Notes under the pieces: generated by a model
Databases searched by the model: none
Seen by the model: the letters and a program-made list of their open reading frames with translations, nothing else
Told to the model about the DNA's origin: nothing
Origin: a virus
Taxonomy: Duplodnaviria; Heunggongvirae; Uroviricota; Caudoviricetes
DNA: 20,029 nt
Reading direction: 5' to 3' (one strand)
IMG/VR virus record: IMGVR_UViG_2687453449_000004
Span: 1 to 20,029 of that record
Made by a program: the position numbers and the translations under genes
Shown: positions 4,996 through 15,614 of the stretch, piece by piece
How the letters are laid out: every line of letters starts with the position of its first letter
Position numbering within the stretch: the first letter of the stretch is position 1

Positions 4996-5487
4996 ATGTA
5001 CGTATGGAGCGCTAAAGCAAATGGCTTTTTCCCCATATCGGAGAAAGAAAAATTTGAGGCATCAGGTCTGTGGCCTGATGATGGTGTAATAGTCAGTGAG
5101 GAAGAACATAAAAAGTTATTTATGGATATTCCACCAGGAAAACAGATTGGAACACTGAATGGAAAACCAGCACTGATAGATATTCCTCAGCCGACCAAAA
5201 AGGAATTAATAGCTATTGCTGAAGTTAAAAAATCCCAATTACGGGAAAAAGCTGACAGTGAAATATCCTGGCGTCAGGATGCTGTTGATGCTGATATCGC
5301 AACTGATGAAGAAGCTACAACTCTCACCCAATGGAAGAAATACCGTGTGCTGCTGATGCGTGTTGATACGTCAACAGCACCCGATATTGAATGGCCTACG
5401 CCTCCGGCAGTTCAGGCCAGATGGCATCCGGCGCGGTGCTGGTATCTGTTGCCGTCACCGCGTCAATGTAATCCAGCACAGCGTTAA
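4996..5487 (+). CDS. Tail fibre assembly protein (TfaE-like), with an unusual C-terminal extension
   Basis: 163 aa; contains the conserved Tfa C-terminal peptide VDTSTAPDIEWPTPPA, then continues about 25 codons into the antisense of the convergent tfa gene. Confidence 0.7.
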   Translation: MYVWSAKANGFFPISEKEKFEASGLWPDDGVIVSEEEHKKLFMDIPPGKQIGTLNGKPALIDIPQPTKKELIAIAEVKKSQLREKADSEISWRQDAVDADIATDEEATTLTQWKKYRVLLMRVDTSTAPDIEWPTPPAVQARWHPARCWYLLPSPRQCNPAQR

Positions 5488-10027: not shown

Positions 10028-10836
10028 TGCACTGGCACCTTCAGAGGGATCACCGGCACAAAGCCGGGATGTTTAATGGCATTACGCCGGATAATGTCCG
10101 CGTCACGCGCCGCGTTATCAAACCAGGTCGCCGCCAGCACCAGCGCGGGTAAAACCTCATCCGGCGTGCGCTGAATGATCCGTGCAGACTGTTCAAGGCG
10201 CGTGTTGATATCCGCATTCAGATCTGCTTTCACCCGGCGCAGCGCCAGAAATAGCGCATCACTGGTTGTACGGGACAACTCCTTATCAATTGCCGTATTC
10301 AGTGTGTCGCGAATGTCGGTCAGTTCCTCCCACGTTGGCAGGTCAACCGTGTTTTTCACCGCCGGTGCATTGTTCAGTGCCGGATGCGTGACGAAAGGCC
10401 AGCCGGTGCTCTGCGCGGGTGTTGTTGACTGCCCCACTGCAGCATTCTGCATCACCGCGGAAGTTGTTGGCGCAGGCAATCGGGTGACGGCATACGCCGC
10501 TTCGCTGATTGCGGTCGTACGAAGGGTGCTGGCAACCACGTTACGCTGCTGCGTCGCCGTGGCGGTGGTTTTACTGTCCGTTTTCCAGACGCCGCGCGGT
10601 TGCAGATCGCTGCCGAGGCTGACACCAGAAAGCGTTTTGATCATGGTGACCAGGTCGCTGGCGTTACCATAAAGGTGCTTCCCGGTACGCCACATTTTCT
10701 GCACCTGCTCAACAAAATTTTTGCCTGACGATGATGGCGTCACCGGTCTGCGCGGTTTCCTGCCAGGTGGTGGCACTGGTCTGGACAACCTTCGCCCATG
10801 TCCGGAACGCAACCGGGTATTGAGGCTCCACGCCAA
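10024..10836 (-). CDS. Tail protein remnant (Mu gp43 / tape-measure-like C-terminal region), probably 5'-truncated
   Basis: Track ORF of 270 aa whose first about 40 residues are Arg/Pro-rich low complexity and which overlaps the adaptor fragment by about 130 nt, so the annotated start is unlikely to be genuine. No sheath, tube or tape-measure genes lie upstream. Confidence 0.35.
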   Translation of the reverse strand: MAWSLNTRLRSGHGRRLSRPVPPPGRKPRRPVTPSSSGKNFVEQVQKMWRTGKHLYGNASDLVTMIKTLSGVSLGSDLQPRGVWKTDSKTTATATQQRNVVASTLRTTAISEAAYAVTRLPAPTTSAVMQNAAVGQSTTPAQSTGWPFVTHPALNNAPAVKNTVDLPTWEELTDIRDTLNTAIDKELSRTTSDALFLALRRVKADLNADINTRLEQSARIIQRTPDEVLPALVLAATWFDNAARDADIIRRNAIKHPGFVPVIPLKVPVQ

Positions 10837-13041: not shown

Positions 13042-13138
13042 ACGCCCTCCAAATATTGCGCGTTATGCATGTTATTTCACGCAATTATTTTGCGCAAGTT
13101 GATTTGCTTATCACGCAATAAAGAAATGTAATAAACGC
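13042..13138. promoter_or_regulatory. Divergent cro/cI promoter-operator region (oR-like)
   Basis: 97-bp intergenic region containing ATTGCGCG, CACGCAAT (twice) and the palindrome TTGCGCAA. Confidence 0.6.
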
Positions 13139-13831
13139 ATGAACATAGGAAACCGAGTCAGACAACTTCGCCAAGCGAAGAACATGAAAATCGCCGATCT
13201 CGCTGAAGCGATAGGAGTAGATGCGGCGAACATCTCGCGCTTAGAAACGGGTAAGCAAAAACAATTTACCGAACAAACACTGAGTAATATTGCCAAGAGC
13301 TTAGGTGTTGATATTGCTGATCTCTTTACCTCTGCCCACAAAAGTAATACTGTATATAAAAACAGTAATAATGAGGATGTTGCGCAGGTGAAGGATGTGT
13401 TCCGTATTGAAATGCTGGATATCAGTGCCAGTGCGGGAAATGGCCTTATCCAGGGCGGTGATGTCATTGATGTGATTCATGCCATCGAATACAGAACTGA
13501 TAATGCTGTATCAATGTTCGGCGGACGACCAGCCAATCACATCAAAGTTATCAACGTTCGTGGGGACAGTATGTGTCCAACCATTGAGCCAGGAGATCTC
13601 ATCTTCGTTGATGTCAGCATCAATCAGTTTGATGGTGATGGTATATATGTCTTTGGTTTTGATGACAAAATATACGTTAAAAGACTTCAAATGATTCCTG
13701 ACAAACTGCTGGTGATTTCTGATAACCAGATTTACCGTGAATGGGGAATTACTAGCGAAAACGAACACCGATTCATGGTCTTTGGAAAGGTCTTAATCAG
13801 TCAGTCGCAAACCCTTAAGAGACATAATTAA
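13139..13831 (+). CDS. CI-type prophage repressor (N-terminal HTH, C-terminal S24/LexA-like autopeptidase); CohE-like
   Basis: 230 aa; HTH at the N-terminus, Ala-Gly (ISASAGNG) candidate cleavage site, Ser nucleophile in GDSMCPTIEPGD and Lys in YVKRLQ. Confidence 0.9.
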   Translation: MNIGNRVRQLRQAKNMKIADLAEAIGVDAANISRLETGKQKQFTEQTLSNIAKSLGVDIADLFTSAHKSNTVYKNSNNEDVAQVKDVFRIEMLDISASAGNGLIQGGDVIDVIHAIEYRTDNAVSMFGGRPANHIKVINVRGDSMCPTIEPGDLIFVDVSINQFDGDGIYVFGFDDKIYVKRLQMIPDKLLVISDNQIYREWGITSENEHRFMVFGKVLISQSQTLKRHN

Positions 13832-13849
13832 CCTCAATATCCCATCCAT

Positions 13850-13875
13850 CGGCCACCGAAAGGTGGCTTTTTATT
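13850..13875 (+). terminator. Rho-independent terminator after the repressor gene
   Basis: GCCACC-GAAA-GGTGGC followed by TTTTTA. Confidence 0.75.
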
Positions 13876-13884
13876 ACCTATAAA

Positions 13885-13940
13885 TTTGGATATCTCGCAA
13901 ATATCACTTGCATATCTCGCAATTTAATTTTATCTTTTGT
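13885..13940 (+). promoter_or_regulatory. Putative pL-like promoter with two direct ATATCTCGCAA repeats (oL-like)
   Basis: Repeats at 13890-13900 and 13912-13922 (22-bp spacing); TTGCAT -35-like and TATCTT -10-like hexamers at 17-bp spacing. Confidence 0.4.
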
Positions 13941-14089
13941 TCCAGACCAACTACAGGATTACAACAAAATCTGGTTGCAACACGGTGCATGTGTCGTAAG
14001 CAGTCAGTAAATGTCAAAAACGAACAGGCAGGACGCCCACGAAGTAGCCGCCTGGGGCATATGAAGTCCAGGATGATTCGTTAGCAACA

Positions 14090-14125
14090 AAAAAGCGCCC
14101 TACAGGACGCTTAGCTCTTTAACAA
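14090..14125 (+). promoter_or_regulatory. boxB-like hairpin followed by a boxA-like element (GCTCTTTAACAA): candidate antitermination (nut-like) site
   Basis: AGCGCCCTacAGGACGCT imperfect hairpin, then GCTCTTTAACAA at 14114-14125, matching the rrn/lambda boxA core; located in the leader of the early-left operon. Confidence 0.45.
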
Positions 14126-14170
14126 TCTGGTCCCCATCAACAAGTAACTGATAACTTGAGGAGATGTGAA

Positions 14171-14377
14171 ATGCACAAAACAGAACCCAAAATCGTCGCG
14201 CCTGGCTACACAGATGAGGAAATTTATGAGTGGATGACAAAGAAGCTGGCAGCTATAAACCAGCTTCGTGAAGTGCTGTCTTATCGACAGGAAACAATAG
14301 ACTCCTTAAAAAAACTGGATCAGGAAATCACGGTTTTATCACAGGATGTTACTTTAGATATTGTGCAGACAAATTAG
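14171..14377 (+). CDS. Small hypothetical protein (68 aa) in the early-left operon
   Basis: ATG at 14171 preceded by GAGGAG; the track ORF begins at an upstream TTG (14156). Not Arg-rich, so not an N-like antiterminator. Confidence 0.45.
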   Translation: MHKTEPKIVAPGYTDEEIYEWMTKKLAAINQLREVLSYRQETIDSLKKLDQEITVLSQDVTLDIVQTN

Positions 14378-14783
14378 GATCCCATTCATTTTCGTCAAAA
14401 TCATCAAAGTGATGAATTTGTGATCTCCAGTCTCGATAATCTAAAAATTTCTGGGCGGTTACGCTTATTTTATCAAGTGTGAGTTCATCCTGAATTGAAA
14501 GAAGAAGTTCATCAAATTTCATCTCATTAATCTGTTTTGGCATCCAGTGATGCTTCATCAGAATAAGGTGAACCAGAGCCTTTTTCCCATTCAACTGATT
14601 ATAGGGAGTGCCGAATTTCTTCCGGTGCTCATGTAAGACAAGGTCCAAAAGAGTAAGTAATGTTGCCCTTGATTCAACTTTGCTTATTTCGACTGATGAC
14701 ACTACCCCACTGATTTCAATGCCCCGATACTTTCCAACATTTTCACAGTGGGATTTGTACAGCGTATAGATATTACCGGACAT
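14349..14783 (-). CDS. Hypothetical protein (144 aa), oppositely oriented moron within the early-left region
   Basis: AT-rich ORF with AAGGA RBS; convergent 29-bp overlap with the preceding small gene; no recognisable motifs. Confidence 0.5.
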   Translation of the reverse strand: MSGNIYTLYKSHCENVGKYRGIEISGVVSSVEISKVESRATLLTLLDLVLHEHRKKFGTPYNQLNGKKALVHLILMKHHWMPKQINEMKFDELLLSIQDELTLDKISVTAQKFLDYRDWRSQIHHFDDFDENEWDPNLSAQYLK

Positions 14784-14798
14784 TTCTTTTCCTTTTGC

Positions 14799-14850
14799 GT
14801 TGTTGGGGATAACCAGATTAACCGAATCCTTGTTGTTGGGGAATAACCAG
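14799..14850. repeat. Two direct repeats TTGTTGGGGA(A)TAACCAG in the upstream region of the 144-aa gene
   Basis: Copies at 14799-14816 and 14830-14850, read directly. Confidence 0.8.
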
Positions 14851-14859
14851 GTCCACCTC

Positions 14860-15230
14860 GCCTGATGTGGCTAAAAGCAGGCACATAACAGCTAAGTATT
14901 TTCAACCAGAGAGAATCCTTAGCGTTGTGGTGAATGCGGCTCAGCGCACGCGGGTTAAGGTTGAGGCTGACAGTCGACCTTCTGTGGATACCCACCCGCC
15001 TGGTGTGCAACCTTCGCCAGGCACCGGGAGGCACCCGGCACCACAACTTTATGCTGTGTGTAGTCCTGGCGGTACCAGTTTGTACCCTTGCTTCCGGCTG
15101 GTACCGTCCTTTTTACAAAACAGAGAAGAGCATCACCGGACGACGGGCTCATAACCCAATCCATCCGGGCGGCTGCCACCGCAGGTGTTCTTCTCTGTTT
15201 TGTGGAGAAACTAATCGGCCTTGCAGGGTC
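14860..15230 (+). other. GC-rich non-coding block with strong secondary-structure potential (candidate structured RNA or processing site)
   Basis: No coherent frame, only mutually overlapping ORFs on both strands. 18-bp long-range stem 15115-15132/15186-15203 (one G-U) and 11-bp stem 15068-15078/15098-15108; further small GC hairpins. Confidence 0.35.
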
Positions 15231-15251
15231 GATATGATGAGGAGCAGCAAA

Positions 15252-15614
15252 ATGGCTAGCGAACGCAGTACTGATGTGCAGGCATTTATCGGGGAGCTGG
15301 ACGGCGGCGTATTTGAAACCAAAATCGGCGCAGTTCTCAGTGAAGTCGCTTCCGGTGTGATGAACACGAAAACCAAAGGTAAGGTCTCACTCAACCTGGA
15401 AATCGAACCATTTGATGAGAACCGTGTGAAAATCAAACACAAACTCTCATATGTTCGCCCGACTAACCGCGGGAAAATTTCCGAAGAAGACACCACCGAA
15501 ACGCCGATGTATGTCAATCGCGGTGGTCGCCTGACTATTCTGCAGGAAGACCAGGGACAGTTACTGACTCTTGCCGGTGAACCTGACGGAAAACTCCGCG
15601 CAGCAGGTCGTTAA
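15252..15614 (+). CDS. YfdP-like prophage protein
   Basis: ATG at 15252 preceded by AGGAG at 7-nt spacing; 121 aa, MASERSTDVQAFIGELDGG... resembles my recollection of CPS-53 YfdP. The track ORF 14934..15614 extends upstream through the GC-rich block. Confidence 0.6.
   Translation: MASERSTDVQAFIGELDGGVFETKIGAVLSEVASGVMNTKTKGKVSLNLEIEPFDENRVKIKHKLSYVRPTNRGKISEEDTTETPMYVNRGGRLTILQEDQGQLLTLAGEPDGKLRAAGR

Follow-up and report, generated by a model that had tools for sequence, protein, structure and literature searches.

A conserved, structured non-coding leader upstream of yfdP in an SfIV/SfV-type lambdoid prophage, with a predicted STnc100/PasD-type RNA and a long helix enclosing an initiator-tRNA-like tip

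Our results showed that the GC-rich block in front of yfdP exists as described, that it is conserved and non-coding and leads an early operon of a prophage, and that this leader is more structured than the original prediction had proposed. The DNA analysed here, referred to as the window, is a viral sequence of 20,029 nt (IMG/VR record IMGVR_UViG_2687453449_000004). The reading that we favour, with a probability of about 0.55, is that the leader gives rise to a terminator-ended sRNA of ~192 nt which would also block transcription into yfdPQR, and that this sRNA is followed by a probable RNase III processing/tRNA-like module. The proposed identity with the STnc100 family, the pseudoknot and the tRNA-like element inside the long stem all go beyond what had been predicted for this block.

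The window belongs to a SfIV/SfV-type lambdoid prophage of E. coli, and its positions 14800-15260 were 99% identical to Shigella phage SfIV. Sequence related to the same interval was found in 2782 of 5426 complete E. coli genomes. A cI-like repressor gene with Peptidase_S24 and HTH domains occupies 13139-13831 (+ strand order) and is followed by its own terminator. Two operator-like sites on the + strand (13886-13922, TTGNATATCTCGCAA), which read TTGGATATCTCGCAA and TTGCATATCTCGCAA individually within 13886-13936, match the site adjoining the cI start, and the repeat family D2 links them to 13104-13118 beside that start. Within 13886-13936 on the + strand there is also a TTGCAT at 13908, followed by a 17-nt spacer and TATCTT, which we infer to be a PL-like promoter that would drive a transcript crossing the block. 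The location in the early-left transcript, which had been assumed before, is plausible in view of the cI-type operators and the PL-like promoter at 13886-13936. A 68-aa gene (14171-14377; phrog_1744) and a 144-aa gene on the opposite strand (14349-14783; phrog_5286) precede the non-coding block, which lies on the + strand at about 14853-15251. The block is followed by yfdP on the + strand (ATG at 15252), then by yfdQ (DUF2303) and a yfdR-like gene, and the operon led by the block is best read as the early-left operon yfdP-yfdQ-yfdR-...-xis-int of a lambdoid prophage of the SfIV/SfV/ST64B type.

The GC content was 0.58 at 14900-15200 compared with 0.35-0.45 (about 0.40) on either side, in agreement with the GC-rich character originally described. 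Folding of 14860-15252 gave z = -6.13 on the + strand, where none of 100 shuffled sequences folded as well, and z = -2.30 on the - strand; the folding of the block is beyond chance and specific for the + strand. All the stems that had been named were found at the same positions. The 18-bp stem (15115-15132 with 15186-15203) is real and extends to 25 bp (15110-15134 with 15184-15208) with several G-U pairs, so that the enclosed stretch, described as about 53 nt, is 53 nt at the boundaries of the 18-bp stem and 49 nt at those of the 25-bp helix. The distance to the yfdP start had been put at about 50 nt, and position 15203 indeed lies 49 nt upstream of the ATG at 15252, with the 25-bp helix ending 44 nt before it. 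The 11-bp stem (15068-15078 with 15098-15108) is present with one G-U pair, and a hairpin of the CCGGG/CCCGG type is located at 15024-15038.

The conserved unit (about 14853-15251) is slightly larger than the interval 14860-15230 first delimited. Its 5' flank (14853-14922, + strand) is conserved, includes a hairpin at 14891-14923 in the minimum-energy fold and may hold a promoter or a 5' processing site; no sigma-70 promoter was found in 14853-14922, just upstream of 14923, by a consensus scan. In one viral contig (L092), the same sequence from 'CCACCTCGCCTGATG' onward is located behind a different upstream gene. The order of a pseudoknotted core (module A), a linker, a DicF-like hairpin (T), a long-helix module (module B), a hairpin, the SD and the yfdP-like gene was kept across four genera, as represented by E. 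coli, Salmonella ST64B, Citrobacter phiNP, in which module A is diverged, and Klebsiella Kp4866-6. Among these homologues the stems of T and of module B are preserved by compensatory changes, and covariation in homologous prophages, which had been suggested as a check, was thus observed.

The coding potential of the block deserves attention since one ORF (14934-15614, 226 aa) runs without interruption and in frame into yfdP and is annotated as SfIV_34 in SfIV; in ST64B, too, 126 codons are open upstream of the yfdP homologue. The earlier statement that no credible reading frame exists was therefore too strong as regards an open frame, and it stood as regards a protein, because the extension is not conserved as one. 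That the block is what remains of a protein gene after decay or a frameshift, or that it extends yfdP at the N-terminus, we consider scarcely credible. No ORF in the block matched Pfam, and the translations of the extensions do not align, with a score of 27 compared with 341 for the YfdP bodies. The block homologues of ST64B, phiNP and Kp4866-6 differ by indels of 1, 2 and 26 nt, and in phiNP a stop codon interrupts the frame 5 codons upstream. The profile phrog_204 covers residues 1-119 of the 120-aa YfdP and so begins near residue 1, and the start of K-12 yfdP aligns at the ATG at 15252 with unrelated sequence upstream. Both the coding potential and the suggestion of a decayed gene were rejected on the lack of a Pfam match, on indels that are not multiples of three and on the lack of a conserved translation, and for annotation these results favour dropping spurious ORFs such as SfIV_34 and SfIV_35. 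The 3' part of the leader (15214-15254, + strand) is composed of an 8-bp hairpin (15214-15233), the SD GAGGAG (15239-15244) and the yfdP start codon (15252-15254).

Module A, the pseudoknotted core, occupies 14924-15047 on the + strand. A closing helix P1 (14924-14932 with 15039-15047) leads into an AAU junction (14933-14935) and a helix P2 (14936-14940 with 14946-14951) with the loop UCAGC and a bulged A. The strand AAGGUUG (14957-14963) pairs with CAACCUU (15008-15014), which is carried by the loop (15006-15014) of helix P4 (14998-15005 with 15015-15022), and a terminal hairpin P5 (15024-15028 with 15034-15038, loop AGGCA) completes the core; all these elements are on the + strand. RNAalifold on 47 representatives supported P1, P2 and P5, with compensatory changes in 10-19 sequences per pair for P1 and in 14-19 sequences per variable pair for P2. 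Across the family, P2 is a 5-bp stem with a bulge and a U-N-N-G-C loop. The pseudoknot joins the 6-7 nt that follow P2 to the loop of the penultimate hairpin, and in 25 representatives the complementarity to the own loop had a mean of 6.9 nt compared with 4.8 nt for swapped partners, a mean that none of 5000 permutations reached. The 36 distinct strand pairs fall into ~16 sequence solutions when grouped by eye. Altogether P1, P2, P5 and the pseudoknot covary over 47-99 sequences from more than 100 viral contigs. The pseudoknot is absent from the Rfam consensus structure in the alignments and from the structure analysis of Zhu et al. 2026.

The Rfam search that had been recommended returned STnc100 (RF02076) below its cut-off. 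In an E-value scan, 14894-15116 of the window matched model positions 1-206 with 43.1 bits and E 7.5e-8, and the window did not reach the curated gathering cut-off of 47 bits and gave no match at the gathering threshold. STnc100 was the only strong Rfam match of the window in that scan. The near-identical copy in contig L092 scored 46.5 bits against the same cut-off of 47. The architecture of STnc100 is present in the window, including the closing helix, GGUGAAU, the P2 hairpin, the CCGGGAGGCACCCGG hairpin and the 3' terminator, and the window groups with canonical members in alignment A2, in which P1 and P2 covary. The family set was retrieved from viral contigs with the exact pattern GGTGAAT ... 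CACCNGGAGGCACCNGGCAC, and those bases are invariant in A2 by construction; they can vary, as Kp4866-6 and phage P1 show GGUAAUU, GGUGG-AGGCA-CCACC and the loop AAGCA. With our own family model, R1, the scores were 76.6 bits for the window, 73.8 for ST64B, 78.2 for phiES15 and 82.7 for phage P1. Zhu et al. 2026 reported that STnc100 is related to PasD, that seed regions and distinct target sets are described for both and that PasD was detected on Hfq by RIL-seq. STnc100 copies of EHEC (EDL933) are transcribed, and one has been confirmed by Northern blot. The best reading of module A on its sequence and fold is a diverged member of the known STnc100/PasD family, with the pseudoknot as an addition that was found neither in Rfam nor in the papers searched.

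Several other identities of module A were tried and rejected. A put-like element of HK022 was dismissed as HK022 does not contain the conserved motif, even with up to 3 mismatches allowed, and putL and putR, which were read directly, are unrelated. For the C4 antisense RNA of P1, the BLAST match lies in the ban operon upstream of tciA rather than in immI, and the Rfam scans gave no match to C4. Mimicry by module A of 16S rRNA, suggested by GGUGAAUACG-like strings, gave a best local score of 20 compared with a shuffled mean of 19.4. The lambda late leader has a similar closing helix, AAU and UAAGCG, yet it gave no match with Rfam or R1.

Behind module A, a single-stranded linker (UUUAUGCUGUGUGUAGUCCU, 15048-15067, + strand) is a candidate seed region. 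In a comparison of the window with ST64B, phiNP and Kp4866-6, its motif UGCUGUGUG.AGUC.UG.CGG hardly changes and the neighbouring helices vary; the 20 nt of the linker (UGCUGUGUGUAGUC) are nearly invariant in the four genera. A search for a cis target of the linker within the window gave only the match to itself, and a weak pairing of the linker to the start region of yfdP, noticed by eye, is not kept in ST64B. The linker leads into module T (15068-15114, + strand), a DicF-like hairpin composed of the 11-bp stem 15068-15078/15098-15108, a 19-nt loop, a C and a U5 tract (15110-15114). With its flanks (15055-15120) the hairpin folds at -23.8 kcal/mol with z = -3.6, its stem covaries in four genera, where GGCGGUACCAG, GGCGGUUAUCC and GUCGGCGUC are each matched by a fitting complementary strand, and it aligns to the terminator of the STnc100 model. 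The 11-bp stem is followed by C and a short U5 tract, the 19-nt loop is atypical for a terminator, and the simple terminator scan did not list T because the loop exceeds 8 nt. We regard T as probably an intrinsic terminator and the 3' end of the sRNA. The DicF model (RF00039) matched 15055-15109 with 15.7 bits and E 1.7, under the cut-off of 48, and the genuine DicF of K-12 scored 76.7 bits on the same model.

Module A, the linker and T together make a predicted sRNA of ~192 nt (14923-15114, + strand), which is the counterpart of STnc100 and of a published RNA, sRNA-17. Sun et al. (2020; PMC7719688) described sRNA-17 in E. coli K1 RS218 as an RNA of 193 nt, defined by 5'/3' RACE and Northern blot, which is encoded upstream of yfdP in a mEp460-like prophage and which according to the authors has no Rfam homologue, is trans-acting and is repressed by ArcA. 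We placed sRNA-17 by mapping the published full-length primers onto phage mEp460 and not onto RS218; they map to 1054-1248 of the mEp460 sequence (L245), on the yfdP strand. At its start this stretch has CGUUGUGGUGAAU, which forms the base of the closing helix, and at its end the T terminator with its U-tract, as in the window. The window has the end sequences of sRNA-17 at 14923 and 15114, directly upstream of yfdP, and from this homology the RNA of the window should span 14923-15114. The STnc100 model of Rfam gave no match on sRNA-17, and R1 found it at only 27 bits (E ~9e-6). On these sequence features the published 'orphan' sRNA-17 can be placed as a diverged member of the module A family. 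In the mutant of Sun et al., replacement of the sRNA-17 interior by a CmR cassette raised yfdP ~95-fold and also raised yfdR, and the strain kept the cassette as well as the T terminator hairpin of sRNA-17 (PMC7719688). The rise of yfdP fits a role as a cis barrier or repressor and could also be an effect of the cassette. Of the candidates originally put forward for the block, a structured regulatory RNA is borne out by the full-length match to the STnc100 model, the sRNA-17 counterpart and the compensatory helix changes, and a terminator gains support as well.

Module B (15110-15208, + strand) is composed of the 25-bp helix 15110-15134/15184-15208, which closes a three-way junction, and of two arms on the + strand, arm 1 (15136-15140 with 15164-15168) and arm 2 (15169-15172 with 15179-15182). 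The 5' strand of the helix starts with the U-tract of T. The fold of 15105-15215 gave z = -8.06. In 20 module B sequences 97.6% of the cells were paired compared with 46-54% with slid partners, and 6 pairs were changed on both sides, 4 of them in the long helix, including changes from A-U to C-G and from G-C to C-G. The 25-bp helix is maintained by selection through compensatory changes. It is longer than the ~20 bp of near-continuous dsRNA taken as the mark of an RNase III site, and from the length of the helix module B is probably an RNase III substrate, in keeping with the processing site originally listed among the candidates.

The tip of arm 1, C-GGG-CUCAUAA-CCC (CGGGCUCAUAACCC, 15144-15157, + strand), was aligned with metY of K-12, and over its 14 nt it does not differ from the anticodon stem-loop of E. 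coli initiator tRNA; the match includes the CAU anticodon and the three G-C pairs. The motif GACGGGCUCAU.ACCCAAUCCA.CCGG is invariant in the 20 module B sequences, which come from E. coli, Salmonella, Citrobacter and Klebsiella phages; the tip is the most conserved part of the module, and the long helix and arm 2 covary. In some copies the loop reads CUCAUUA or the third pair is G-U. Klebsiella phages have a form of the module in which an acceptor-like stem of 6-7 bp, with RCCA behind it, closes the same junction. This form lies downstream of Q at a distance of 6 nt from a preceding tRNA-Asn or tRNA-Arg gene, and the two forms occur together in one contig. ARAGORN called no tRNA in the window and did not call the Klebsiella (B2) form either, the Rfam tRNA model (RF00005) recognised neither form, and a tRNA gene was rejected for both. 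No Rfam family matched module B, and no description of it was found in targeted full-text searches of the literature.

In the proposed mechanism, the leader would hold two RNA devices in series. In the first, module A, the linker and T would form the ~192-nt sRNA (14923-15114) with a pseudoknotted body of the STnc100/PasD type, and its 3' end would be made by intrinsic termination at T, which would also keep the downstream genes off in the lysogen and gate yfdPQR-xis-int. The second would act on read-through transcripts, in which the U-tract and the sequence after it would pair with 15184-15208 to give the 25-bp helix. RNase III would probably cut this helix, as it does for DicF in Qin, and such a cut would yield the same sRNA, set the tRNA-like insert free and leave the yfdP mRNA with a processed 5' end. 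The structures, covariation, family relations and module order behind this mechanism were computed here, and the discrete RNA of A and T and the rise of yfdP upon interior replacement were taken from the paper on the homologue sRNA-17. Termination at T, cleavage by RNase III, the origin of the 5' end and trans targets of the sRNA are steps that we infer. Several points speak against it, as the STnc100 score is under the cut-off and the DicF score far under it, no promoter appeared just upstream of 14923 in the consensus scan, T has a long loop and a short U-tract, the interior of sRNA-17 is unlike module A of the window, and the mechanism gives no reason for the initiator-tRNA-like tip.

The distribution of the modules shows in which contexts the core occurs. 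The pattern scan of viral contigs gave more than 120 loci with 83 distinct cores. The canonical (CCCC-type) cores are located between Q and the holin gene, often in tandem, with an intrinsic terminator at a median of 29 nt downstream. The core of the window is of the GCGG subtype, which has two arrangements, A-T-B-yfdP and DicF-A, the latter followed after 33-45 nt by the start codon of a small protein (DicB, TciA). Below the STnc100 threshold, the A core was found in Qin of K-12 between dicF and dicB and in the ban operon of phages P1 and SJ46, immediately before tciA; an annotated 'dicF-like region' and tRNA genes are likewise part of that operon. In phiES15, Kil follows ~65-75 nt after the core according to the annotation, and some contigs have the order T-B-A. 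The differing arrangements across contigs indicate that the modules shuffle between the leaders of early-left and late operons.

These contexts also bear on the alternative that module A is a cis-acting RNA which controls the RNA polymerase or the terminator behind it and is not mainly the body of a trans-acting sRNA. We regard this as unlikely, a judgement that covers both of its variants together, a put-like processive antiterminator and an aptamer that senses a ligand or protein with T or the SD as the expression platform. The fold would suit such a role, being compact and pseudoknotted, nearly invariant at the junction nucleotides and variable in the outer helices, and so would the constant position in leaders of long phage operons, either after PL or between Q and the holin gene, at a fixed short spacing to a terminator (the median of 29 nt) or to a start codon (the 33-45 nt of dicB and tciA, with kil in phiES15 farther away as annotated). 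No N-like gene was seen among the first PL genes examined (13831-15252), and the replacement of the sRNA-17 interior altered downstream expression with T left in place. On the other hand, the terminated members of the family accumulate as sRNAs, and the seed regions, the distinct target sets and the presence of PasD on Hfq (Zhu et al.) argue for action in trans. As to the antiterminator variant, there is no similarity to putL or putR of HK022, and an antiterminator predicts lower yfdP after deletion whereas higher yfdP was observed. An alternative anti-terminator pairing of P4 with T was also considered by eye; the window could plausibly form it, unlike ST64B and mEp460, and this inspection showed no such pairing conserved across the homologues.

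The functional centre might instead be module B, as a mimic of the anticodon arm of initiator tRNA that serves as a decoy or sponge for VapC-type nucleases, for the 30S P site with IF3 or for MetRS, with the long helix only presenting or releasing the mimic. VapC toxins of Salmonella and Shigella, the hosts of ST64B and the Sf phages, cleave tRNAfMet and thereby shut down translation. The 14 nt shared with metY, an arm that does not change in four genera in spite of covariation in the long helix and arm 2, and the Klebsiella form with its acceptor-like stem and RCCA only 6 nt after real tRNA genes all point in this direction. Neither ARAGORN nor the Rfam tRNA model recognised either form, the CUCAUUA loop or G-U third pair of some copies departs from the tRNA, and the resemblance could go back to a phage tRNA(CAU) gene that decayed and whose remnant now serves as a structural insert. 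We therefore hold the mimic to be doubtful, a little more so than a cis-acting module A, and equally doubtful is the wider claim that module B would be an undescribed class of phage RNA in which a tRNAfMet-arm decoy is mounted either on a 25-bp helix of RNase III type in early leaders or on an acceptor-like RCCA stem within phage tRNA arrays. If it were true, the leader with its pseudoknotted module A would be a set of structured protein-binding RNAs and not an ordinary base-pairing sRNA, and a true initiator-tRNA mimic would represent a novel type of counter-measure used by phages, or of element for translation control. Both the cis-sensor reading of module A and the tRNA-mimic reading of module B are less likely than the two-part reading of an sRNA followed by a processing module.

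The two-part sRNA/processing reading concerns an RNA of wide occurrence, as the core is present in over half of the complete E. coli genomes searched as well as in phage P1, Qin, Stx phages and Salmonella prophages. Since all of the early-operon subfamily (Qin, P1, SfV, ST64B) scores slightly under the STnc100 cut-off, this threshold would better be lowered or split. The results also offer testable points for this RNA, namely a pseudoknotted domain, the kinship with sRNA-17 and the travel together with a DicF-like terminator and a tRNA-like double-stranded clamp.

As compared to STnc100/PasD, the window shares the closing helix with GGUGAAU, the P2 hairpin with the U-N-N-G-C loop, and the terminal hairpin CCGGG-AGGCA-CCCGG that abuts the closing helix with a terminator behind it. 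It differs in having GCGGC instead of CCCCC in P2, in its score of 43.1 against the cut-off of 47, and in its location, as the window copy precedes yfdP in the early-left leader and the place of the canonical copies is between Q (or stx) and the lysis genes. Both the predicted RNA of the window and sRNA-17 immediately precede module B and yfdP, and the two prophages have one operator type in common. The two RNAs agree in their first 16 nt (CGUUGUGGUGAAUGCG), in the closing helix, the T hairpin and the U-tract, and nearly in length (~192 nt in the window and 193 nt for sRNA-17). The core interior is different, the BLAST similarity of the mEp460 type to the window begins only at 15067, and the window lacks whole-length sequence identity with the 193-nt RNA. 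DicF of Qin has been assigned to RNase III processing and also to transcription termination (1990 work, from a reference list). T shares with DicF the outer stem GGCGGUA, the inner stem CAG and a loop starting with UUU.UAC, and the dicBF operon of Qin is likewise an early-left operon after a cI/DicA-type repressor; it too has the A core, which stands between dicF and dicB. The order is DicF then A in Qin but A then T in the window, and the single-stranded 5' part of the window RNA, the 20-nt linker, is unlike that of DicF; since these 5' parts differ, the targets should differ as well.

For the long-helix module the comparison is with tRNA and with phage lambda. Module B resembles the initiator tRNA in the 14-nt anticodon stem-loop of metY and, in the Klebsiella form, in the acceptor-like stem with RCCA and the location in a tRNA array; it differs from a tRNA by having no D arm and no canonical T loop, and in the window the acceptor stem is replaced by the 25-bp helix. 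RNase III sites occur in the leaders of phage lambda, in the N leader and in sib. Like these sites, the window has a long, near-perfect helix that lies in the PL transcript a short distance ahead of the gene that comes next, but there is no sequence similarity between them, and the helix of the window begins with the terminator U-tract and encloses a tRNA-like junction.

The STnc100-type core that makes up module A is also present in known prophages and phages. In prophage Qin of E. coli K-12, an unannotated STnc100-type core was located between dicF and dicB (L004 4448-4588, Rfam 34.4 bits), which takes up the greater part of the spacer between these genes and stops 33 nt upstream of the dicB start codon; no mention of it was found in the dicBF literature consulted. 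The top match of R1, the model built here for the module A family, was a member in the ban operon of phage P1, upstream of tciA (L005 2495-2631, 82.7 bits), the terminal loop of which is AAGCA as compared to AGGCA. A second, weak R1 match is present in P1 at L005 2234-2348 (16.5 bits).

Two or three tandem STnc100 units were found in the late region of four viral contigs (L016, L027, L085 and L089), those of L027 and L085 being placed between Q and the holin gene, and most of the tandem units that were read carry their own terminator. The order of the modules is altered in L027 (~10080-10180) and in the contig L010, where a terminator is followed by a long helix and then by module A, with no gap between the 3' strand of that helix and the closing helix of module A. 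In L027 this long helix encloses GGGACUCAUAACCC. We also found an unannotated tRNA-like RNA in viral contigs of Klebsiella-type phages, namely L127 (1509-1578), L128 and some 20 others. It lies downstream of Q, directly 3' of tRNA-Asn or tRNA-Arg, and combines an acceptor-like stem with an initiator-type anticodon arm and a 3' end RCCA, without a D arm. In contig L214 it is present together with the long-stem form.

In phage SfIV (L002), in the part equivalent to window 14702-15614, two annotated proteins overlie the RNA block, i.e., SfIV_34, a 226-aa extended version of yfdP, and SfIV_35, a 114-aa product of the opposite strand; both are probably spurious. Upstream of the RNA block, two genuine phage genes of unknown function gave full-length matches, a 68-aa gene to phrog_1744 (14171-14377, +) and a 144-aa gene to phrog_5286 (14349-14783, -). 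The two are convergent with a 29-nt overlap at their 3' ends, and neither had a match in PADLOC. They are flanked by copies of TTGTTGGGGA(A)TAACCAG, with two direct copies immediately 5' of the RNA block (14800-14819 and 14833-14852) and a 75% inverted copy 656 bp away (14124-14143); these repeats could be a regulator-binding site or cassette edges. In its start region, the 68-aa gene has 11 nt (14174-14184) that are perfectly complementary to part of the long helix's 3' strand (15194-15204); chance alone would give roughly one pair of this kind in that stretch. Among the tail genes, Rfam IS009 (RF02111) matched 5192-5375 (+) over the full model length with 48.6 bits (E 1.4e-8), far under its cut-off of 117 bits.

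Phage lambda gave no match to any model, Rfam or R1, at L244 1050-1150, between tR' and S. In this region, AAU and UAAGCG come after a 9-bp helix (GUUGUGCUG/CAGCACAAC), the 5' flank of which, GUGCUCUUUCCGUUGUG, is shared with the P1 and SJ46 copies. The region resembles a degenerate module A relative.
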